From an uncultured Oligoflexia bacterium (GTDB lineage: Bacteria; Bdellovibrionota; UBA1018; CAZJVD01), in NCBI GenBank assembly GCA_964549505.1, contig CAZJVD010000004.1:102545-166544 (forward strand): a DNA stretch of 64,000 bases, written 5' to 3'. Below are positions 1,933 to 12,829 of the stretch, one piece after another. A program made the translations under genes and the position numbers. Numbering within the stretch: position 1 is the stretch's first letter; the number at the start of each line of letters is the position of its first letter. The notes beneath the pieces were generated by a model that searched no databases, was not told the DNA's origin, and saw only the letters and a list, made by a program, of their open reading frames with translations.

Positions 1933-2835
1933 GTGGGCCCAACCCGTCAGGATTTGACCCTCGCGGGACAGGGGATTTTTCGGGGCGCTTTTGTGCTCTC
2001 GCCTAAATTTGTCGTGATGGCGTTACGGAAACCGGATCAGACCATTCTTGTGCGTTCGCGGAGGCGGCGCTTCGAGGAGTGGGATCGCAGGTTGGGCGCC
2101 GTTCCCGTTCTTCGCAAGGCGGTTTGCCTTCTCGAATGGCTTTATGAATCCTTGGATCATTGGACCGTGAGTGTGCAGTGGCGACTGCGCGGGGAAAGCC
2201 ATGAGGCGCTCGCGAAGCGTTTAGCTGGCGGATGGGGTCTTGTGGTCGCACTGGGTTTCGGAATGGCGATCGCCATGGTGGCGTTTTCTCCAGCGTTACT
2301 CGGTGATGGACTTGCTCGGGCTCTCGCGTTTTTAGGATTGTTCTGGGTTTTGAAATGGCTTCCTGGAACCGATGGACTTTTTCGGATGCAAGGTGCAGTT
2401 CATCGCGCGCTCTCGGCGTCGCGATCGGGAAAAATTGAACCGGAACGTCTTGCAGAGGCCTCAGCGGCCTTTCAACCATGTCCTTTTCTTGCGTTTGTTC
2501 TCGGGGGTTTTGCTTTGTTTGCGGTTGCGAGTGGCGTGTCGTTTTATGGCATTCGTGGTGAGGGCGTTAGCGGCGTTTTGTTTCGCCTTGTTCTTGTGTT
2601 GGTGGTGTTCAGCTTGGTCAGTGAGGTTCTTGATCGGTTTCCAAAACTTTTTGCAGGGTTACAGAAGGCACTTTGGGGAACGGCTTCGATCGAAGAGCTC
2701 GAAGTGGCAGGCGCGGCAGTGAAAGAGATGCTTCGCCTCGAGGCGGGTGCATCGGTCGTCGACAAACTAGGGCGTTCAAAGTTCATGGAGCACGAGATGG
2801 TCGTACGATCGATTCGGGAGATTCCGGATGTTTGA
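1933..2835 (+). CDS. Hypothetical integral membrane protein
   Basis: 300-aa ORF with a GTG start and several long hydrophobic segments. It fills the rpmE-prfA gap on the same strand. No motif recognised. Confidence 0.4.
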   Translation: MGPTRQDLTLAGQGIFRGAFVLSPKFVVMALRKPDQTILVRSRRRRFEEWDRRLGAVPVLRKAVCLLEWLYESLDHWTVSVQWRLRGESHEALAKRLAGGWGLVVALGFGMAIAMVAFSPALLGDGLARALAFLGLFWVLKWLPGTDGLFRMQGAVHRALSASRSGKIEPERLAEASAAFQPCPFLAFVLGGFALFAVASGVSFYGIRGEGVSGVLFRLVLVLVVFSLVSEVLDRFPKLFAGLQKALWGTASIEELEVAGAAVKEMLRLEAGASVVDKLGRSKFMEHEMVVRSIREIPDV

Positions 2836-3901: not shown

Positions 3902-4824
3902 TGTCGCGTCTCGAGCTTGAGAGAGCTGTCAAGGATCTGTTGCGTGGCCGGCTGCTTGCGGGGCGCGATCTTTCGGAGCAGGAGCCTTTTCTTATTATCG
4001 AGCAAGGCTATCGTTTAGCAAAACTGCCGCGTCCATCGCGACTCGAGTGGGTCACGAGTCCGACTTCGGAGGTTCCCGCTGCGGTTTCTGAGCGAGCGCT
4101 GGGGCTTGCTGAGAAGCGCGCGGAAGGCGCGTTGTTACAGTATCTGTTAGGGCGAACGGAGTTTGCGGGTCTCGAACTTGCGGTCGGGCCGGGAGTCCTC
4201 GTGCCCCGTCCGGAGACCGAGTTCTGCGTGGATCAAGCGGTCGCTGATTTGCGGTCCAAGTTTGAGAAAAGCGTGCGACGGAGTCCCGTCGGACTTGAGA
4301 TTGGTTTGGGATCCGGAGCCATCAGCTTGGCGCTGCTGAAAACGTTCTCGGAGCTGCGGATGACAGCAACCGAATGGTCCGTGGAAGCGCGGGCCTGGGC
4401 CGAGATCAACGCGCGAGCGACGGGCTTAGAGGAACGATTGACGATTGTGAGTACAGGTCATGCTCGCGACGTGTTCGAAAGTATCGAGCGCCGTGAAAGT
4501 CCCGCGTTTGACTTCTTAATCGCAAACCCTCCCTATCTGTCGGTTGGCGATCAAATCGACGAATCCGTTCTCGTGCACGAACCGCATGCCGCCCTTTTTC
4601 CGCCTTCAGAGCCTCTCTTCTTTTATCAAGTCATCGCATCGCAGGCGGGTCGCATGCTTCGCCCGGGAGCGCCGATTTACCTCGAGATTCCACACGAGCG
4701 CGCCGCTGAAGTGCGTGCGTTGTTTGAGAAAGAAGACTACATTGTTGCTGTGGAAAACGATTTGACAGGACGGCCACGTTTTTTAAGGGCTGGGCGTCAG
4801 GAGCACGGGCATGGATCGGTTTGA
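3898..4824 (+). CDS. prmC: Release factor glutamine N5-methyltransferase (HemK/PrmC)
   Basis: NPPY motif 'FLIANPPYLS' and a SAM-binding 'GLGSGAISLAL'. Conserved prfA-prmC gene order. Confidence 0.88.
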   Translation: MMSRLELERAVKDLLRGRLLAGRDLSEQEPFLIIEQGYRLAKLPRPSRLEWVTSPTSEVPAAVSERALGLAEKRAEGALLQYLLGRTEFAGLELAVGPGVLVPRPETEFCVDQAVADLRSKFEKSVRRSPVGLEIGLGSGAISLALLKTFSELRMTATEWSVEARAWAEINARATGLEERLTIVSTGHARDVFESIERRESPAFDFLIANPPYLSVGDQIDESVLVHEPHAALFPPSEPLFFYQVIASQAGRMLRPGAPIYLEIPHERAAEVRALFEKEDYIVAVENDLTGRPRFLRAGRQEHGHGSV

Positions 4825-6088
4825 AATCGAAGGCGGTCGAAGGTTGTCAGGTTCTGTCGTGGCAGGTGGGTCAAAGAACTCGTCATTGCCTTGTCTCTTC
4901 GCAACCCTACTCTCCGAGAAGGAGTCCGTTGTTCGGCGTGTTCCGAATCTTCAAGACATCACCTCGACGGTGAGTTTGCTTCAGTCTTTGGGCTGCGATG
5001 TTTCGCGGGATCTCGAGCGTGGAGAGGTCCGGTCGAAACTCGTGTCTCTGAAAACAGACGAAGCTCCCTATGATCTTGTTCGAAAGATGCGCGCGAGTGT
5101 TCTTGTGTTGGGACCGCTGCTTGCGCGGTTTGGTCGCGCGCGCGTGAGTATGCCCGGTGGGTGCGCGATTGGTGCACGGCCAGTCGATTTTCATCTGGCG
5201 GGACTGAAGCAGATGGGTGCCCAGATCACGATTCAGGAAGGCTTTATCGAAGCGCGTTGTCAGAAGCTTCAGGGCGCTCGCATCGGTCTTGAGTTTCCAA
5301 GTGTCGGTGCTACGGAAAACTTGATGATGGCCGCTACACTTGCTTCGGGAGAAACACTTCTCGAGAACTGTGCGCAAGAGCCCGAGATCGTGTGTCTCGC
5401 GAATGCTTTGCGTTCGATGGGCGCTGTGATCGAAGGAGCTGGTACGCCGGTGATTCGGGTTCAAGGAGCCGCATCGGGAAGTCTCGGTGGCATCGAACAC
5501 GCTGTGGTCGGAGATCGCATCGAAGCAGGAACCTTTCTCGCCGCTGGTTTTGCAACGGGGGGCGATGTCGAGGTGAAAGGGATTCATCCCGAGATGCTCG
5601 AGGCCGTTCTTTTGGTTTTTGAAGCTGCCGGTGCAAAAGTTCATCGAGGTACCGTGAGCGCAGGTGATGGCGTTCGCGTTCAGGCTCAAGGGCGTTCGCG
5701 TGCCGTTCACTTCCGTACGTTGCCGTTTCCAGGATTTCCGACCGATATGCAGGCCCAGCTCATGGCTGTTCTCACGCTAGCGAGTGGGACGAGCGTGATT
5801 GAGGAAACTGTTTTTGAAAATCGTTTCATGCACGTTCCGGAACTCACTCGAATGGGAGCGCAGGTCGTGATCAAGGGTAACGCTGCTTTGGTCGAAGGTG
5901 TGGGCGAGTTGCGAGCCGCCCCTGTCATGGCGACCGATCTACGGGCCAGTGCGGGTCTTGTGATTGCAGCGTTGGCGGCGCACGGGACTTCTGTGATCAA
6001 TCGTATCTACCATCTGGACCGGGGCTACGAGTGCATGGAGGAGAAACTTCGGGCGCTTGGCGCCGATGTTAAGCGGGTCTCGGCTTAG
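4811..6088 (+). CDS. murA: UDP-N-acetylglucosamine 1-carboxyvinyltransferase
   Basis: 425 aa. N-terminus 'FEIEGGRRLSGSVVAGGSKNSSLP' is characteristic of MurA/EPT-family enzymes. Confidence 0.9.
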   Translation: MDRFEIEGGRRLSGSVVAGGSKNSSLPCLFATLLSEKESVVRRVPNLQDITSTVSLLQSLGCDVSRDLERGEVRSKLVSLKTDEAPYDLVRKMRASVLVLGPLLARFGRARVSMPGGCAIGARPVDFHLAGLKQMGAQITIQEGFIEARCQKLQGARIGLEFPSVGATENLMMAATLASGETLLENCAQEPEIVCLANALRSMGAVIEGAGTPVIRVQGAASGSLGGIEHAVVGDRIEAGTFLAAGFATGGDVEVKGIHPEMLEAVLLVFEAAGAKVHRGTVSAGDGVRVQAQGRSRAVHFRTLPFPGFPTDMQAQLMAVLTLASGTSVIEETVFENRFMHVPELTRMGAQVVIKGNAALVEGVGELRAAPVMATDLRASAGLVIAALAAHGTSVINRIYHLDRGYECMEEKLRALGADVKRVSA

Positions 6089-6101
6089 GGCGTGTCCGGC
6101 T

Positions 6102-6476
6102 TTAGCCAGCGTCCCCATCGATGATACCGCCCTTTTTCCGGCGAGCGAGCTGACGTTTGTTTTCATTGCTCTCGCGGTAACGGCGGAGCCCCTGACGCGC
6201 GGACGTCTCTTTACCCGATCCAAGATTCTCTAAGATTTTGATGAAAGACGTAGAAACACTGGCTGGCGGGGGTGTCTTTCCGTCTGCTTCGGCGACAGCT
6301 TGGTCGGCTGTCCCCTCATGATCTTGGGCCTCTTTTGGGGTGTCTTTTTTCGGGGCGTGGTGCTGCTGCGACGGCACCGGATCGTGCGGGCTATCGCGGT
6401 CGGTGCGAGCCGTCTGACGGGGTTCCGTGAGCGGCTTAACGAATTTTCGTAGAGCTTGGGCGACGCGAGAGAACAC
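6102..6476 (-). CDS. Hypothetical small basic/low-complexity protein
   Basis: 124-aa ORF in the murA-downstream gap, charged and low-complexity. It could be a spurious ORF. Confidence 0.2.
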   Translation of the reverse strand: MFSRVAQALRKFVKPLTEPRQTARTDRDSPHDPVPSQQHHAPKKDTPKEAQDHEGTADQAVAEADGKTPPPASVSTSFIKILENLGSGKETSARQGLRRYRESNENKRQLARRKKGGIIDGDAG

Positions 6477-6517
6477 AGGTCACGACCTTTCCGATCAAAG
6501 CTTGCCGAGAGGCTATA

Positions 6518-7858
6518 ATGCGCCCAGCTGTATTATCGGCAGGTACCTGTGAAAACTTGAGAAAAAAAATCGTAGATGTTACTAATGGAATTTTAATGGA
6601 CAGCTCTAAGGATATCTTTTCAAAAGCATTCACCTATTCGGCTGCCAATGAGGTCAAGAAGTCGGGTTTGTATCCGTTTTTCCGTGTGATCCAGTCGACA
6701 TCTGGGTCATCCGTGGTTTCGGGGGGCAGTCACCGGGTCATGATCGGGTCGAATAACTATCTCGGCTTTACGCATCACCCTCGTGTGATCGAAGCAGCCC
6801 GGGATGCCATTGTTCGCTTTGGTAGCGGATGCACCGGCTCGCGTTTTCTGAACGGCAATCTTGAGCTCCATGAGCAGCTCGAGGCGGAGTTTGTTAGGTT
6901 TTTAGGTAAGCCAGCCGCCCTTGTGTTGACGACGGGGTTTCTCACCAATCTGAGTGTGATCTCGGCCATCAGCGGTCGCAAGGACGTGATCTATAGCGAT
7001 CGCGAGAACCATGCGTCCATTATGTGTGCGCAGCAGATGGCAATCTGCGAGACCATTAAGTTCAAGCATAACGATCCTGCTGATCTCGAGCGTGTTCTTG
7101 AAATGACACGGTCCAAGTACGAAGGTGCCATGATTGTGGCGGACGGTGTTTTCTCGATGTCCGGTGATATTTTTCGTCTCGACCAGGTCGCTAGGATTGC
7201 AAAAAAGTATGGGTGCCGAGTCTACGTCGACGACGCACACGGCATGGGTGTCATGGGACCCCAAGGTCAGGGTACGGCTCACCACTTCGGCATTCAGGAC
7301 GATGTCGATCTCATCATGGGGACATTCTCGAAGTCCTTTGCCAGCTTAGGTGGAGTGGTCGCCGGTGACGAAACCGTGATCGATTTCATCCGTCACAATG
7401 CTCGCCCGTTTATTTTCAGTGCTTCGATTCCGCCATCCGCCGCAGCGACGGTCCTCGAATGTCTCAGGATTTTGCGTGAAGAACCGCAGCATCTCGAGAA
7501 CCTTCGTCGTAACGCGCTTAAAATGTCGGAAGGGTTTCGTTCAATCGGTTTCAACACACTCGGCAGTCAGACGCCGATCATTCCGATCTTAATCGGTGAT
7601 GATTTGGATGCGTTTAAGTTTGCAGCCGCACTTTATGAAAACGGTGTGTTTGCGACTCCGGTCGTTTCGCCCGCCGTGCCGAAGGGCTGTGCGCTGATTC
7701 GCACCAGTTATATGGCCAGCCATCGTGATGAGGATCTCAATTATGTTCTCGAAGTTTTCGAGAAGTTGGGTCAGCAGTTCGGTATTACCGGAAACGCTGG
7801 TCGGCAGGCTGAGTTGAACGAGCTTGCTTCTCATCATTTTGGAATTCAAACCGTTTAG
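6518..7858 (+). CDS. PLP-dependent alpha-oxoamine synthase family enzyme (BioF/Kbl/serine palmitoyltransferase-like)
   Basis: Class-II aminotransferase fold of the 8-amino-7-oxononanoate synthase/SPT type: 'SNNYLGF', 'DDAHGMGVMG' and 'GTFSKSF' (the PLP-lysine region). The true start may be the internal Met at 6596. Confidence 0.8.
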   Translation: MRPAVLSAGTCENLRKKIVDVTNGILMDSSKDIFSKAFTYSAANEVKKSGLYPFFRVIQSTSGSSVVSGGSHRVMIGSNNYLGFTHHPRVIEAARDAIVRFGSGCTGSRFLNGNLELHEQLEAEFVRFLGKPAALVLTTGFLTNLSVISAISGRKDVIYSDRENHASIMCAQQMAICETIKFKHNDPADLERVLEMTRSKYEGAMIVADGVFSMSGDIFRLDQVARIAKKYGCRVYVDDAHGMGVMGPQGQGTAHHFGIQDDVDLIMGTFSKSFASLGGVVAGDETVIDFIRHNARPFIFSASIPPSAAATVLECLRILREEPQHLENLRRNALKMSEGFRSIGFNTLGSQTPIIPILIGDDLDAFKFAAALYENGVFATPVVSPAVPKGCALIRTSYMASHRDEDLNYVLEVFEKLGQQFGITGNAGRQAELNELASHHFGIQTV

Positions 7859-7870
7859 CGTGGGGTCTTT

Positions 7871-7914
7871 GTAGTTTCCGGGTAGTTTCCGGGTAGTTTC
7901 CGAGTAGTTTCAGG
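7871..7914. repeat. 4 x 11-bp tandem repeat (GTAGTTTCCGG consensus) immediately upstream of a CDS start
   Basis: Units at 7871-7881, 7882-7892, 7893-7903 and 7904-7914. The last unit degenerates into the AGGAG Shine-Dalgarno sequence 6 nt before the ATG at 7922. Confidence 0.9.
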
Positions 7915-7921
7915 AGTTCTT

Positions 7922-9052
7922 ATGATCGAAGTTCGTCCCGTCCGGTCCAAGCGCGATTGGAAAACCTTTGTAGACCTCGCGTGGAAATTCAATCAGAACG
8001 ACCCACACTGGGTTCCCCCTCTTCGCATCGCTGTTCATGAAATTCTTGATGTTGAGAAGAATCCTTTTTTTAAACATGCCTACATGAATCCGCTGATCGC
8101 CTATGAGAATGGCAATCCGGTGGGACGCATGGTGGGTGTGATCGATGAAAATCACAATCGCGCCTACTCCGAGCACACCGGTTTTTTTGGATTTTTTGAA
8201 TCCGACAACCGTACCGATGTTGCGGCGGCTCTGTTTCGCGAGACGGAGACCTGGCTCAAAGGTCTTGGCATGAACAAGATTCGTGGTCCCATGAATCCCA
8301 GCACGAACGCCGACTTTGGTCTTCTCATTGATGGGTTCGACGTCGATCCGACCATCATGACCACGCACAATCCACGCTACTATGCTGATCTGGTGGAAAA
8401 AAACGGTCTCGCGAAGGTGATGGATCTCTATGCTTACGCGCTTACGCACAGCTTGAAAGTACCTGAGAAAGTGCTTCGCCATTTCGAGCGACTCAAACAG
8501 AGCGCCAAGATCCACGTTCGAACGATCAACACGGCTGACTTTGATAACGAAGTGGGCCGCATCATGGACGTCTACAACGACGCCTGGCAGGACAACTGGG
8601 GTTTTGTCCAAATGGATCCGCTGGAGATCAAGCAGCTCGTGAAAGAACTCAAGATGATCTATGACCCCCGCATGGTTCTCATGGTCGAAGTGGACGGAGA
8701 GCTCGCGGCTTTCGGGATTGGTTTGCCCGACGTCAATATCGCGATCAAAAAAGTTCCGAACGGAAAACTCTTTCCATTTGGTCTTCCAAAGCTACTCTGG
8801 AATCTCAAAGGTCCCGGCAAAAAGGCCATCAATCTTTTGCGCGTCTATGGTCTAGGCGTTCGCAAGAAATACGAAAAGCTCGGCATTGGTCCACTGCTGT
8901 ACCTCGAGTATTTCAAACGCGGATTGGCGGCGGGTTACGAGTTTGGTGAGGCTTCGTGGATTCTGGAGTCCAATGTTCCCATGCGCAAAGCGATGGAGCG
9001 TTTCGGCGCGCCTGCGCGGAAGATTTGGCGGATTTACGAGAAGGCACTTTGA
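7922..9052 (+). CDS. FemAB/GNAT-superfamily acyltransferase ('BioF2-like' Acetyltransf_6-type), putative N-acyltransferase
   Basis: 376 aa, a size and N-terminus ('MIEVRPVRSKRDWKTFVDLAWKF') typical of the BioF2-like acetyltransferase family, which is usually found next to BioF-like genes. This is recognition, not a computed domain hit. Confidence 0.45.
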   Translation: MIEVRPVRSKRDWKTFVDLAWKFNQNDPHWVPPLRIAVHEILDVEKNPFFKHAYMNPLIAYENGNPVGRMVGVIDENHNRAYSEHTGFFGFFESDNRTDVAAALFRETETWLKGLGMNKIRGPMNPSTNADFGLLIDGFDVDPTIMTTHNPRYYADLVEKNGLAKVMDLYAYALTHSLKVPEKVLRHFERLKQSAKIHVRTINTADFDNEVGRIMDVYNDAWQDNWGFVQMDPLEIKQLVKELKMIYDPRMVLMVEVDGELAAFGIGLPDVNIAIKKVPNGKLFPFGLPKLLWNLKGPGKKAINLLRVYGLGVRKKYEKLGIGPLLYLEYFKRGLAAGYEFGEASWILESNVPMRKAMERFGAPARKIWRIYEKAL

Positions 9053-9055
9053 ACC

Positions 9056-9316
9056 TTGAAGAAAGTCACCGTTTACACGATTGATCCATGTCCTTACTGT
9101 ACGCAGGCAAAAAGCTTGTTGCAGTCGAAGGGAGTCTCCTTTGAGGAGGTGCGTGTTCAGCGCGATGACGATGCCATGCGCGAAGCATTGCTCCGAAAGT
9201 CTGGCATGCGCACGTTTCCTCAGATTTTTTTCGGCGACGAACTTGTGGGCGGTTATGCCGAGTTGAAGCGTCTGGAAGACACGCATGGAATATTGAAAGC
9301 GCTTGGACGGTCATGA
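9056..9316 (+). CDS. Glutaredoxin (Grx3-like)
   Basis: CPYC active site 'DPCPYCTQAK', a 'TFPQIF' motif and a GG. TTG start. Confidence 0.85.
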   Translation: MKKVTVYTIDPCPYCTQAKSLLQSKGVSFEEVRVQRDDDAMREALLRKSGMRTFPQIFFGDELVGGYAELKRLEDTHGILKALGRS

Positions 9317-9348
9317 CACATTCTGTCCGCGCGTGATACACTGACGGC

Positions 9349-10038
9349 GTGATTGTTCTTGGAGTCGATCCTGGCTCACAGCGTACGGGCTATTCTCTGA
9401 TTCGTGTCAAAGCTGGAAAGTTTTCTCTCGTCGATAGTGGCGTGATTGATGTGCACACGCTCGCGATGGAGCGGCGCTTGGCTCGCATGCACGCTGTGCT
9501 CGAAGGTGTCATCGACGTGTACGCGCCGAGCCTTCTTGTGCTTGAGCGTATCTTTTTCGCAGAGAATGCGGTTTCGGCGCTCAAGCTCGGACAAGCGAGG
9601 GGAGTGGTGATGCTTCTGGCGGGACAGAAGAAACTCACACTCTTGGAGTTTGCACCCACCGAGGTCAAACACCTTGTGGCAGGGTATGGGCACGCCTCGA
9701 AGGAACAATTATTAAAAACATTGGAACTTCTTCTAGCGCTTGCACCTCAGCATCGAGAACGGCATTTTCCGACAGCTGACGCTTCGGATGCGACAGCGCT
9801 TGCGCTTCTGGGTGCGATACGAAAAGGCGCCCCACGACGCGGATCCATATCCGGTTTTCAGCCAGGTAAGCCTTCTCGACTCGGAGCGTGGCAAGCTCTA
9901 GCCGAGCGTCACTTAAAAGGGGACGTAAAAGCTGCCGTAGGCATCGAAGCGGGCGCGAATAAGCCGAGTCGAAAGAGGCCCAAGGTGCCAAAGATGCCAA
10001 AAGTATTTGACCGTCGCAAGACGCACGATCCAAGATAG
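9349..10038 (+). CDS. ruvC: Crossover junction endodeoxyribonuclease RuvC with a basic C-terminal extension
   Basis: 'IVLGVDPGSQRTGYSL' catalytic N-terminus (GTG start). It is followed by about 70 aa of Lys/Arg/Pro-rich tail that canonical RuvC lacks. Confidence 0.8.
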   Translation: MIVLGVDPGSQRTGYSLIRVKAGKFSLVDSGVIDVHTLAMERRLARMHAVLEGVIDVYAPSLLVLERIFFAENAVSALKLGQARGVVMLLAGQKKLTLLEFAPTEVKHLVAGYGHASKEQLLKTLELLLALAPQHRERHFPTADASDATALALLGAIRKGAPRRGSISGFQPGKPSRLGAWQALAERHLKGDVKAAVGIEAGANKPSRKRPKVPKMPKVFDRRKTHDPR

Positions 10039-10045
10039 AGGCGCC

Positions 10046-10672
10046 ATGATCGCATTTCTTCAGGGCAAATTGATCGAAGTATCTGAGAACCATCTCACCA
10101 TCGGAGTGGGTGACGCCGAGTCGTTAGTCGGTTATCGCGTGTCGGTTCCGGCCTCGTACGCATCGTCGGGTCGCCATGAGCGTGGAAACAAGGCGACATT
10201 TTACGTCTACACCCATGTGCGCGAAGATCAGCTCGACCTCTATGGTTTCGAGACGATTTCCGAGCGTGAACTCTTTGTTTCGCTGATGAAGTGTAACGGC
10301 GTGGGTCCCAAGGCAGCGCTTGCGATTTTGTCGGGTGCATCTGCCGATGTGATTGTGGACGCTGTTATCGAAGGCCGTGCAGCGGCGCTGACCGCCATTC
10401 CTGGTGTTGGTAAGAAAACCGCCGAGCGTCTGACTCTTGAGTTACGAGATGAGTTTATAAAAAAGCGTGACGCCGGGATCTTCTACGCTCCGGCCAGTAT
10501 TGCAGCGTCGAACGACCGATCGGCATTTCCTGTTTTCGAAGAAGCACGTCAGGCACTCACTTCTTTGGGGTTTAAGTCGGCCGATATTGAAGCCGTTCTA
10601 AAGAAGACAAAGACTTTTGATCGTGTCGAGAGCGTTGTTCGCAGTGCTCTCCGCGAGTTAGGTCCCTCATGA
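10046..10672 (+). CDS. ruvA: Holliday junction branch migration protein RuvA
   Basis: 'MIAFLQGKL' N-terminus and an HhH motif '[15 protein letters not shown]'. The start was trimmed to the internal Met. Confidence 0.88.
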
Positions 10673-11763
10673 CGCGTGTGACGGATCCGATCGTCGAGCC
10701 GAGCGATATGGAACACGTGGAGAACGTGGATGGCGCCGGTCTGAAAGCGCTTTCCTTGCGCCCGCAAATTCTTTCGGAGTTTATTGGGCAGGCAAAGATT
10801 CGGGATCGCCTCGAGCTGTTTGTGCGGGCCGCGCGCCAACGCGGAGATGCACTCGATCATGTACTACTGGCTGGGCCACCGGGTCTCGGAAAGACGACGC
10901 TCGCTCACATCGTCGCGCATGAGATGGGTTCGCGCTTGCACTCAGTTGCTGGCCCCACGATTGAAAAAAAGGGAGATCTCGCGGCAGTTTTGACCGGACT
11001 CGAAGCGCAGGATGTTCTCTTCATCGATGAGATTCATCGCCTACCGCGCGCGATCGAAGAAGTTCTCTACTCAGCGATGGAGGATTTTCGTCTCGATCTG
11101 ATCGTCGGTCAAGGCACGGGAGCGAAGACGATCACGATCGATCTTCCAAAGTTTACGTTGGTTGGTGCGACGACCCGAACAGGGCTCTTAACGGGACCGC
11201 TGCGCGATCGTTTCGGTGTCTTGCTCCGAATTGATTTTTATCCCGAAGGAGAGCTTCGACAGATCGTGGAACGATCGGCGACGAAGCTGGGTGTTTCGAT
11301 TTCAAATGACGGTGCTTTCGAGATCGCCAAGCGCGCACGCGGAACCCCACGGGTCGCCAATCGATTGTTGCGTCGGGTACGGGACTGCGCTCAGGTTGAG
11401 CAAACGAGTGGGACGCCCAAGATTGACCGTGCGATCGCCGATAGCGCGCTCGAGATGCTCGAGATTGATGGGCGAGGTCTCGATAGTCTCGATCGCAAAT
11501 TCTTGCTCACCTTGATTGAAAAGTTTGATGGTGGTCCAGCGGGTATCGAGACACTGGCAGCGGCTATCGGTGAAGAGCGCGAGACCCTCGAAGATGTCGT
11601 CGAGCCGTTTCTCGTTCAGCAGGGATTTTTACAGCGCACTCCACGCGGACGACTGGCCACACGCTTGGCTTTTGAGCACTTCGGTCGCGCCTGGGAAGAG
11701 AAAGATAACGCACCGACCCCACCGCTTTCATCCGTTGTTTTTCCGCAACAGCCAGACGTCTAG
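10669..11763 (+). CDS. ruvB: Holliday junction DNA helicase RuvB
   Basis: '[12 protein letters not shown]', Walker A 'GPPGLGKTT' and a Walker B '[10 protein letters not shown]'. Confidence 0.93.
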
Positions 11764-11926
11764 AGTTGTAGACTTCCAACGCTTTGCTGGGCATATCGCG
11801 CAGCATTAAATTCGACCTATTTAAACTACTGTTATTGTAGCCGTTTTTCCCTTATTGAAAGGGAGGTTTGGGAGTCCCATCGGCATGTGTGTTGCTCTAC
11901 GGACAGGTTGGGTGGGGAAAGAATCT

Positions 11927-12829
11927 ATGACCAATCGCGAATGCACCATCGGAAAAGACATCAGTTTGGAAGGCATCGGCCTTCACAGTGGTCGGCCTGC
12001 GCGCATGACGTTGCGACCGGCTCGTCCCGGTACAGGGATTGTTTTTGTAAGAGCGGATCTGCCATCGCGTCCGCGTATTGAAGCGCGCTTTGATCAAGTT
12101 TCGGGAACGACTCTAGCGACGACACTCGGTACAGGTGATGTTCGTGTCGCGACGACGGAGCATCTCTTGTCCGCGTTTTATGGAATGGGTATCGACAATG
12201 CGACGGTCGAGCTCACGTCAGCGGAACTCCCCATCATGGATGGAAGTTCGCGCGATTTTGTCACGGCGATCGAAGCAGCCGGAATCCACGAACAACTCGA
12301 GCATCGTCGGCTTGTGAAACTCAAGCGTTCGGTCCAGGTGTTTCTTGGTGATAAGTGGGCGGTCGCAGAGCCATCGGCTCGCTTTCAAGTGCATACACGC
12401 GTTTCGTTTCCACATCCTGCAATTGGTGAGCAAGAGCTGTCCTTCGAAGATGGCCGCGACTCTTTCCGCGATATCGCCTCAGCGCGAACATTTGGTTTTG
12501 CTCATGAGGTCGAACATCTCCGTAAAAATGGTTTAGCGCTCGGCGGTTCGTTAGAAAATGCGGTTGTTTTCTCGCCGACAGGCGTGATGAACCCGGAAGG
12601 CCTACGTTTTCCAGATGAAGTGGTTCGTCACAAGATGCTCGACGCGCTCGGGGACTTCATGTTGGCCGGAATTCGCTTTGAAGCTGCTTTTGTATTAAAC
12701 AAGTCGGGTCATGACCTTCATCAGAAACTCCTGGCTGCGATCTTTGAGAACTCGGCCAACTACGCGATCGTGGACTCCCGTCCTGCCGCGCTTCAACCGC
12801 GCGTTTCCGCGCTTACGGCGGTCAGCTAG
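11927..12829 (+). CDS. lpxC: UDP-3-O-acyl-N-acetylglucosamine deacetylase
   Basis: 'GIGLHSGRPARMTL' and 'HLLSAF' regions of LpxC. The start was trimmed to 'MTNRECTIGK'. Confidence 0.88.
   Translation: MTNRECTIGKDISLEGIGLHSGRPARMTLRPARPGTGIVFVRADLPSRPRIEARFDQVSGTTLATTLGTGDVRVATTEHLLSAFYGMGIDNATVELTSAELPIMDGSSRDFVTAIEAAGIHEQLEHRRLVKLKRSVQVFLGDKWAVAEPSARFQVHTRVSFPHPAIGEQELSFEDGRDSFRDIASARTFGFAHEVEHLRKNGLALGGSLENAVVFSPTGVMNPEGLRFPDEVVRHKMLDALGDFMLAGIRFEAAFVLNKSGHDLHQKLLAAIFENSANYAIVDSRPAALQPRVSALTAVS

Follow-up and report, generated by a model that had tools for sequence, protein, structure and literature searches.

Which lipid or cofactor pathway is served by an alpha-oxoamine synthase (AOS) and the N-acyltransferase encoded directly behind it in an uncultured Bdellovibrionota/Oligoflexia bacterium? 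The two genes, referred to as ORF1 and ORF2, lie in a window of 64 kb, which is the whole stretch of DNA analyzed here. The reading we favor, with a probability of about 0.8, is that the pair is an spt-bcerS module predicted from sequence to carry out the first two steps of ceramide-backbone formation.

Organization and surroundings of the gene pair

A first-pass annotation had described a PLP-dependent AOS followed by a 376-aa acyltransferase. This description is borne out, as the coordinates of both ORFs are exact (Table 1), ORF1 matches the Pfam profile Aminotran_1_2 (PF00155) with 170 bits, and ORF2 has a GNAT fold. The annotated start of ORF1 is probably too far upstream. The alignment with relatives, which have about 418 aa, begins only at residue 27-32, so that Met27 at position 6596 is the likelier start and would give a protein of about 420 aa. 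Likewise, the approximately 26 N-terminal residues that distinguish ORF1 from the serine palmitoyltransferase (SPT) of Sphingobacterium multivorum (SmSPT) are probably a start-site artefact. The spacer between the two genes contains the ribosome-binding site of ORF2 (AGGAG, 7912-7916) and an 11-bp tandem repeat at 7871-7911 (TRF: period 11, 3.7 copies, 96% matches), which none of the 25 relatives with a compared spacer sequence has at this place. A promoter and terminator scan of positions 5900-9500 gave a result no better than shuffles.

Table 1. Positions of the gene pair and its neighbors in the window
Feature	Position	Strand	Length, basis
murA	4811-6088		Pfam / gene calls
spt-like alpha-oxoamine synthase (AOS; serine palmitoyltransferase family), ORF1	6518..7858	+	446 aa = longest ORF
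ORF1-ORF2 spacer	7859..7921	+	63 bp, direct sequence reading
bcerS-like tandem-GNAT acyl-CoA N-acyltransferase (YghO / CC_1154 family), ORF2	7922..9052	+	376 aa
glutaredoxin gene	9056..9316	+	PF00462 in precomputed gene calls
ruvC/A/B	9349-11763		Pfam / gene calls
lpxC	11855-12829		Pfam / gene calls

The glutaredoxin gene begins 3 nt past the ORF2 stop codon and is probably co-transcribed with the pair. We take it as context only, because no glutaredoxin cluster was found among the recurring neighbor clusters of related loci. The first-pass annotation had correctly named lpxC, murA, and redox genes as neighbors, and had used them as a functional hint. In close relatives, the pair is located inside a conserved block of housekeeping and cell-envelope genes (murA / spt bcerS / ruvCAB lpxC). 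This synteny does not extend beyond close relatives in Bdellovibrionota, where its clusters comprise 14-25 loci; in other phyla the pair sits in contexts unrelated to murA/lpxC. Hence, the proximity of murA and lpxC was rejected as a functional link; it is a lineage synteny, not a functional cluster. A minus-strand ORF at 6102-6476 was rejected as a part of the system, since it has neither homologues in related loci nor a Pfam domain. Pfam scans of the larger ORFs in the window detected no BioA/B/D-type domains, in agreement with the earlier statement that bioA, bioD, and bioB are not nearby. Genes of the bioC type and tdh were likewise not found within the window.

ORF1 groups with serine palmitoyltransferases

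ORF1 is a PLP-dependent AOS that, judged by its sequence, groups with serine palmitoyltransferases. Its top NCBIfam models are SPT, the BioF/Kbl family, BioF, and Kbl. The best one, NF047600 (SerpalmtaseCFB), scores 457 bits and so misses its cutoff (640), and two other SPT models, NF047599 (361 bits, cutoff 500) and NF047603 (284 bits, cutoff 670), are also matched below cutoff. All three are narrow equivalogs, and all GNAT-linked AOSs tested from other phyla are under the SPT cutoff too, with 458-564 bits. Because the score of ORF1 falls below the equivalog cutoff, the model does not certify its serine specificity. A protein search with the AOS returned no characterized SPT among the top 120; the relatives are unnamed metagenomic proteins or labelled BioF.

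The best PDB matches of ORF1 are the SmSPT structures (8GUH/3A2B, E 3e-105), followed by Thermus BioF/Kbl (1e-88), Kbl (1e-68), cysteate acyltransferase (1e-64), and BioF (1e-58). ORF1 is 44% identical to SmSPT over the trimmed alignment columns. It retains the SmSPT residues N52, G80, S81, H138, S185, D210, A212, H213, T241, S243, K244, and F272, of which K244, H138, D210, H213, T241, and S185 include the catalytic Lys and the PLP-binding His/Asp/His; these conserved active-site residues are largely common to all alpha-oxoamine synthases. SmSPT Met271, which contributes its main chain only, is replaced by Ile. ORF1 resembles the Bacteroidetes/delta-proteobacterial SPTs in keeping all PLP-binding and substrate-anchoring residues. 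It is also an AOS of the soluble homodimer type that stands alone, and the lack of a neighboring ACP gene fits what this subgroup leads one to expect.

In an NJ tree with few outgroups, ORF1 falls into a clade of 98% bootstrap with characterized or annotated Spt, namely SmSPT, E. coli Spt, and Sphingomonas Spt. The phylogenetic check among SPT, BioF, and Kbl that the first-pass annotation had suggested therefore comes out on the SPT side. The clade holds all tested SPT-type AOSs adjacent to a GNAT gene, and leaves out E. coli BioF, E. coli Kbl, and one AOS of the related genome L020. The latter is a second, unlinked AOS of that genome and could serve a housekeeping role.

The same two-enzyme chemistry might start from another amino acid, either alanine or glycine to give 1-deoxy-type ceramides, or cysteate to give capnine-type sulfonolipids, with N-acylation by the GNAT to follow. 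This would suit the sub-cutoff SPT score and the detectable homology to cysteate-C-fatty acyltransferases. Moreover, SPTs take Ala and Gly at low efficiency according to PMC10196870, and alanine with the same enzyme set leads to 1-deoxyceramides according to the supplement of PMC11334938. However, SPT structures match ORF1 some 40 orders of magnitude better than cysteate acyltransferases do, the residues that make water-mediated contacts with the serine hydroxyl in SmSPT (N52, G80, and S243) are kept, and the AOS clusters with characterized or annotated Spt. We consider an amino acid other than serine unlikely.

ORF2 as a probable bacterial ceramide synthase of the YghO / CC_1154 family

The assignment of ORF2 to the YghO / CC_1154 (CerS/bCerS) family is supported by its full-length alignments, and the link to the Caulobacter protein runs via YghO and synteny. 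In BLASTP, ORF2 shares 37% identity with E. coli YghO (E 1e-75, residues 1-376) and 35% with a Sphingomonas N-acetyltransferase (E 5e-76), an orthologue by position. The nearest homologue, from an uncultured organism, is 56% identical. The E. coli yghO locus has the order lptF-lptG / spt-acp-epimerase-fatty acyl-AMP ligase / yghO. The Sphingomonas locus reads NAD(P)H-binding - ACP - AOS - ... - lptF - lptG - desaturase - N-acetyltransferase, i.e. the cerR-acpR-spt-lptF2-lptG2 sphingolipid locus. An acyl-CoA N-acyltransferase required for dihydroceramide has been reported as 'aca' (CC_1154), with yghO (ECD_02850) and Swit_3908 (PMC9386255). CC_1154 was named cerS (PMC11324152), and bcerS is CCNA_01212 (PMC9393093), the same Caulobacter crescentus gene. 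ORF2 is like these proteins in its length (approximately 376-383 aa), in being a soluble GNAT-superfamily acyl-CoA N-acyltransferase, in its genomic tie to spt, and in having no dedicated family model in Pfam or NCBIfam.

Fold comparison matches ORF2 to tandem GNATs, e.g. MAB_4324 and MshD. The Pfam GNAT profile PF00583 matches the C-terminal half only (residues 214-362), and since only that half is matched, the acyl-CoA site is expected to reside there. The NCBIfam search of ORF2 gave no match, the PDB sequence search gave only GNAT matches at E~0.2, and YghO has no Pfam match either. The first-pass annotation had labelled ORF2 a FemAB/GNAT acyltransferase and expected an HMM match to the Acetyltransf_6/BioF2-like family. 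The GNAT part of the label holds and the FemAB part is not confirmed: PF13480 (Acetyltransf_6) has no match in ORF2 even at E<=5, and precomputed PF13480 matches occur in many but not all of its homologues. Unlike the 'BioF2-like acetyltransferase' of PF13480, ORF2 is a tandem GNAT.

Conservation of the AOS-GNAT pairing

Related loci were gathered with a closer alignment (A1) of homologues. Of the 75 informative loci, 48 have an AOS gene immediately upstream of the GNAT gene and in the same orientation. These paired loci come from at least six phyla and span Bdellovibrionota, Bacteroidota, Ignavibacteriota, Gemmatimonadota, Calditrichaceae, and Planctomycetales. In the other 27 of 75 loci the GNAT gene has no AOS next to it, so members of the family may do something else in certain lineages. 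Two members, P0138 and P0212, are single-chain AOS+GNAT fusions, in which respect the ORF2 family resembles BioF2-type fusions, and P0129 fuses the GNAT to a fatty-acyl-AMP ligase. A CerR-like gene of the NAD-epimerase family occurs in 20 of the related loci, adjoining the pair in most of them; the encoded proteins share 27-31% identity with the CerR of E. coli and of Sphingomonas.

It is very unlikely that the pair makes a small N-acylated alpha-aminoketone, i.e. a signal or secondary metabolite of the CAI-1/CqsA-like or PKS-associated AOS kind, rather than a membrane lipid. ORF1 does have distant homologues among the CqsA-type autoinducer synthases (PDB E 1e-34, NCBIfam 211 bits), the GNAT gene of some gammaproteobacterial MAGs adjoins a FAAL-ACP-AOS megaprotein resembling a secondary-metabolite architecture, and sphingolipid-like metabolites can come from PKS/AOS clusters (PMC12134224). 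ORF1, however, stands alone, belongs to the SPT clade, and has in CqsA a much more distant relative than in SPT. All close relatives carry the pair in the conserved housekeeping/envelope block, not in a biosynthetic island, and genetic evidence connects YghO/CC_1154 homologues with the formation of dihydroceramide. It is scarcely credible that ORF1 is a housekeeping BioF of biotin synthesis or a Kbl (glycine C-acetyltransferase) beside a functionally unrelated GNAT: JGI pipelines name many close homologues '8-amino-7-oxononanoate synthase' and the NCBIfam bioF and kbl models score high (370 and 358 bits), but both scores lie under their cutoffs (TIGR00858, 426; kbl, 460) and under the SPT score, bioA/B/D and tdh were not found in the window, ORF1 is set apart from E. 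coli BioF and Kbl by the SPT clade, the adjacency is kept across phyla with both enzymes fused in single polypeptides, and the unlinked AOS of L020 could fill the housekeeping role.

Predicted pathway

Because of the two family assignments, the conserved pairing, the fusions, and the co-occurrence of a CerR-like gene, we read the pair as an spt-bcerS module making N-acylated 3-ketosphinganine, a ceramide precursor. The same lines of evidence support the earlier preference for a sphingoid or aminolipid pair over biotin synthesis. We infer the substrates, the reaction order, and the final lipid from family membership and homology. In the first step, Spt would form 3-ketosphinganine by condensing a long-chain acyl thioester with L-serine. 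Since the pair has neither a dedicated ACP gene nor an acyl-ACP synthetase gene linked to it, acyl-CoA is the probable thioester, as it is for SPTs of the Bacteroidetes/delta-proteobacterial subgroup. Bacteriovorax stolpii is among the bacteria having an SPT of this subgroup. In the second step, suggested by homology to YghO/CC_1154 and by published work on Caulobacter, the tandem GNAT would attach a second acyl chain, taken from acyl-CoA, to the amino group, yielding an 'oxidised' (3-keto) ceramide. In the third step, a CerR-type NAD-dependent reductase encoded elsewhere in the genome would produce dihydroceramide, and head-group addition would follow to give the outer-membrane lipid.

The core chemistry predicted here and the homologous N-acyltransferase are shared with the rhodobacterial five-gene cluster (aasR-cerR-acpR-spt + cerS) of Caulobacter and E. 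coli B, the Spt of which is 35% identical to ORF1. The gene arrangement differs. Here, ORF2 lies directly 3' of spt in a two-gene unit, whereas bCerS genes in Caulobacter, E. coli, and Sphingomonas have acpR, aasR, cerR, and lptF2/G2 nearby, which are missing here. Because ORF1 belongs to an SPT subgroup other than that of rhodobacterial Spt, its acyl donor is expected to be acyl-CoA and not acyl-AcpR. In the window, tblastn with five CerR-like queries found no CerR homologue, and tblastn also found no AcpR, AasR, or fatty-acid hydroxylase; no gene for ACP, acyl-ACP synthetase, or head-group addition is present within the window. As CerR, ACP, acyl-ACP synthetase, and head-group genes are absent from these 64 kb, the window accounts for only the first two steps of the pathway predicted for this genome. 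In every close relative, cerR is absent within 10 kb of the pair. It appears improbable to us, but the Oligoflexia/Bacteriovoracaceae lineage might lack CerR altogether, in which case its pathway would either stop at 3-keto ceramides, which would accumulate, or be completed by a reductase not homologous to CerR. If true, this would make it a variant form of bacterial ceramide synthesis.

Meaning for the organism and the protein family

The bacterial ceramide pathway was already described in 2021-2022, and the pair is an ordinary additional case that opens no new mechanism. With it, an uncultured Bdellovibrionota lineage joins the bacteria predicted to make ceramide-type lipids; the supplement of PMC11334938 counts Bdellovibrionota among known sphingolipid producers. 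Neither Pfam nor NCBIfam has a dedicated model for the bCerS/YghO family. Annotation pipelines give its members no more than the name 'N-acetyltransferase', and the Spt partner often receives the wrong label '8-amino-7-oxononanoate synthase'. The adjacency of spt and bcerS, together with their fusions across phyla, provides a simple genomic marker for sphingolipid potential, and the distribution of the pair is consistent with published metagenomic surveys.

Organization of the locus

The pair consists of ORF1, encoding an alpha-oxoamine synthase (AOS), and ORF2, encoding a GNAT protein. The first-pass annotation had described a BioF/SPT-family enzyme followed by a 376-aa acyltransferase at 6518-9052, and both ORF coordinates proved exact. 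On the plus strand, the pair is preceded by rho, rpmE, a 300-aa ORF, prfA, prmC, and murA, and the glutaredoxin gene behind it is followed by ruvC, ruvA, ruvB, lpxC, and a SAM-dependent methyltransferase gene. The nearest relatives of both proteins are found in Oligoflexia, Bacteriovoracia, and Bdellovibrionia MAGs. All close relatives from Oligoflexia and Bacteriovoracaceae carry the pair within one and the same block, murA / pair / ruvCAB lpxC. The murA, lpxC, and redox neighbors reported previously are present, but the murA/lpxC neighborhood is thus lineage synteny and was rejected as a functional cluster. When the larger ORFs of the 64-kb window were scanned with Pfam, no biotin genes were detected, as had been claimed, and no epimerase/SDR, ACP, or fatty-acyl-AMP ligase (FAAL), save an acetyl-CoA-synthetase-type enzyme.

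Coordinates of features in the window and of variant blocks in other genomes
Feature	Coordinates	Strand	Remark
300-aa ORF	1933-2835	+	between rpmE and prfA
murA	4811-6088	+	upstream of AOS
124-aa ORF	6102-6476	-	between murA and AOS
ORF1, Spt-type AOS	6518-7858	+	446-aa ORF
11-bp tandem repeat	7871-7911		3.7 copies, 96% matches
ORF2, tandem GNAT	7922-9052	+	376-aa ORF
Glutaredoxin gene	9056-9316	+	after GNAT
lpxC	11855-12829	+	after ruvB
Gammaproteobacterial FAAL-ACP-AOS cluster	L045 6147-12118		also L055, L038, L061
CerR-like / spt / bcerS-like / aminotransferase block	L039 7576-13266; L051 7556-13370

The relatives of ORF1 (about 120 among the matches listed) are typically about 418 aa long and align from residue 27-32, lacking about 26 N-terminal residues of the annotated ORF1 (6518-6595). 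Translation therefore probably begins at Met27 (6596). The spacer between the two ORFs is 63 bp long and bears an AGGAG ribosome-binding site. Most of it is occupied by the tandem repeat GTAGTTTCCGG, which terminates one base ahead of this site and is found in none of the 25 printed spacers of relatives; it may have arisen by slippage or may influence expression. The 300-aa ORF has a sub-threshold DUF1385 match (21 bits vs a cutoff of 22.1), and its position is kept in 10 related Bdellovibrionota loci (neighbor-gene cluster c17). The low-complexity 124-aa ORF has neither a Pfam domain nor a homolog among 80 related loci, and may not be a real gene. In several relatives, a plus-strand HIT-family (histidine triad) gene lies upstream of AOS instead.

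ORF1 as a Spt-type AOS

The best NCBIfam model for ORF1 is SerpalmtaseCFB with 457 bits, followed by the BioF/Kbl-family (385), BioF (370), and Kbl (358) models, all four scores being under the equivalog cutoffs. Its best match among solved structures is the serine palmitoyltransferase (SPT) of Sphingobacterium multivorum (SmSPT, E 3e-105). The next ones are a Thermus BioF/Kbl enzyme (1e-88), Sphingomonas SPT (1e-74), and Kbl (1e-68), and weaker matches are cysteate-C-fatty acyltransferase (1e-64) and BioF (1e-58). The SmSPT residues holding PLP and the serine substrate are described in PMC10196870. Asn52, Gly80, Ser81, His138, Ser185, Asp210, Ala212, His213, Thr241, Ser243, and Lys244 are identical in ORF1, and Met271, which makes only a backbone contribution, is replaced by Ile. 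As most of these residues are common to the whole AOS family, their conservation does not prove serine specificity. The enzyme might use a different amino acid, namely alanine, glycine, or cysteate, but this is disfavored by the much better SPT matches.

The first-pass annotation had proposed placing ORF1 among SPT, BioF, and Kbl. In a neighbor-joining tree with limited outgroups (384 columns, 100 bootstraps), ORF1 falls in a 98%-supported clade with GNAT-adjacent SPT-type AOS of other phyla, SmSPT, and the Spt proteins encoded in the sphingolipid loci of E. coli and Sphingomonas. E. coli BioF and Kbl, together with an unlinked second AOS of a related Bdellovibrionota genome, are outside this clade. 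By homology, we assign ORF1 as a Spt-type AOS.

ORF2 as a YghO/CC_1154-family GNAT

ORF2 matches PF00583 (24.9 bits, residues 214-362) and has no NCBIfam match. The earlier FemAB/GNAT assignment thus stands for GNAT, but is not confirmed for FemAB or Acetyltransf_6/BioF2-like; PF13480 is not matched even at E<=5. One search found more than 6,000 homologs of this large family, and a second gave 6,779 clusters at 50% identity. By tblastn against plasmid-labelled records, we reached E. coli YghO (37% identity over the full length, BLASTP E 1e-75) and a Sphingomonas parapaucimobilis 'N-acetyltransferase' (35%, E 5e-76). YghO itself has no Pfam match and is named only 'protein YghO'.

The E. coli locus has the order lptF-lptG / AOS, ACP, NAD-epimerase, fatty acyl-AMP ligase / yghO, which agrees with ECD_02851-02854 being aasR, epi, acpR, and spt (PMC9386255); its AOS is annotated 'spt: serine palmitoyltransferase' in RefSeq. 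The S. parapaucimobilis locus contains genes for an NAD(P)H-binding protein, ACP, AOS, an ATP-binding protein, lptF, lptG, a desaturase, and the N-acetyltransferase. CC_1154, yghO (ECD_02850), and Swit_3908, among others, are listed as 'aca', the acyl-CoA N-acyltransferase needed for dihydroceramide synthesis (PMC9386255). In Caulobacter, CC_1154 is cerS and CC_1155/1156 are LptG2/LptF2 (PMC11324152), and the bacterial ceramide synthase gene bcerS is CCNA_01212 (PMC9393093). Resting on YghO and synteny, ORF2 is assigned as a tandem GNAT of the YghO/CC_1154 (bCerS) family.

Of 5,426 complete E. coli genomes, 4,068 contain at least 80% of the length of the E. coli spt-acpR-cerR-aasR / yghO block (L082), which is flanked by second lptF and lptG copies and glcC. 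Distant full-length GNAT homologs (27% identity, E 1e-32), unannotated in their records, occur in Prevotella sp. (H28) and Phocaeicola massiliensis (H29), and are bCerS candidates for gut Bacteroidales.

Conservation of the pair

We scanned species-representative genomes, and 75 of the 80 loci returned had enough upstream sequence. In 48 of these 75, AOS precedes GNAT in the same orientation, ending no more than 400 bp before it; they belong to Bdellovibrionota, Chitinophagaceae and other Bacteroidota, Ignavibacteriota, Gemmatimonadota, Calditrichaceae, and Planctomycetales. The SPT model scores top for all tested SPT-type AOS adjoining GNAT. Fusions join AOS to GNAT (P0138, 780 aa; P0212), GNAT to fatty-acyl-AMP ligase (P0129, 940 aa), and GNAT to GNAT (P0121, 784 aa), lending Rosetta-stone support to a putative pathway of acyl activation, AOS, and N-acylation. 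These comparisons indicate a conserved pairing with functional coupling. A BioF or Kbl role for ORF1 is disfavored by scores, tree, context, and fusions.

Twenty loci also have an NAD-dependent epimerase/dehydratase-family gene, mostly directly beside the pair (divergent upstream or directly downstream), whose products share 27-31% full-length identity with those at the position of the reductase CerR in E. coli and Sphingomonas. None of the close relatives from Oligoflexia and Bacteriovoracaceae has a CerR gene within 10 kb of the pair; a CerR-less pathway variant in this lineage is improbable.

In the other 27 loci, GNAT has no adjacent AOS, e.g. in Spirochaetaceae (L028, L029, L032, L040, L043), Kapaibacterium (L049, L071, L080), Cloacimonadota (L065), and L030, L046, L053, and L076. 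This fits spt lying elsewhere in the genome, scattered sphingolipid genes having been reported for Sphingomonadales, Bacteroidota, and Cloacimonadota, and is also compatible with further functions of the family. A trypsin-like peptidase gene replaces AOS upstream of GNAT in several Bdellovibrionales MAGs.

Some gammaproteobacterial MAGs have a block of a single 1,059-aa FAAL-ACP-AOS protein, a fatty-acid hydroxylase, GNAT, and a CerR-like protein, which may represent a sphingolipid-like pathway variant in which acyl chains are loaded on the enzyme. The AOS domain of this protein is outside the SPT clade of the neighbor-joining tree, and the bioF model scores best. Another block, kept in 12-14 Bacteroidota/Ignavibacteriota loci, comprises a divergent CerR-like gene, spt, a bcerS-like gene, and genes for a class-IV aminotransferase (PF01063), a cNMP-binding protein, and a universal stress protein.

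Proposed pathway

Both the housekeeping context and the stand-alone nature of the SPT-clade enzyme speak against a signaling or secondary-metabolite role. SPT-best scores, the SPT clade, the YghO family, conserved pairing, and fusions bear out the earlier preference for a sphingoid or aminolipid role over biotin synthesis, and support the pair as spt-bcerS, the putative first two genes of a bacterial ceramide pathway. The families and linkage of the two genes are direct observations, from which we infer substrates, reaction order, and final lipid. Spt would condense serine with a long-chain acyl thioester to 3-ketosphinganine, the bCerS-like GNAT would N-acylate it from acyl-CoA, and a reductase encoded elsewhere would complete dihydroceramide. 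The order of Spt, N-acylation, and reduction is that proposed for Caulobacter (PMC11087976). Bacteroidetes and Bacteriovorax stolpii have SPTs of the ORF1 subgroup, and Bdellovibrionota figure among the known sphingolipid producers listed in PMC11334938. Hence, the predicted ceramide synthesis would be unsurprising for this phylum.
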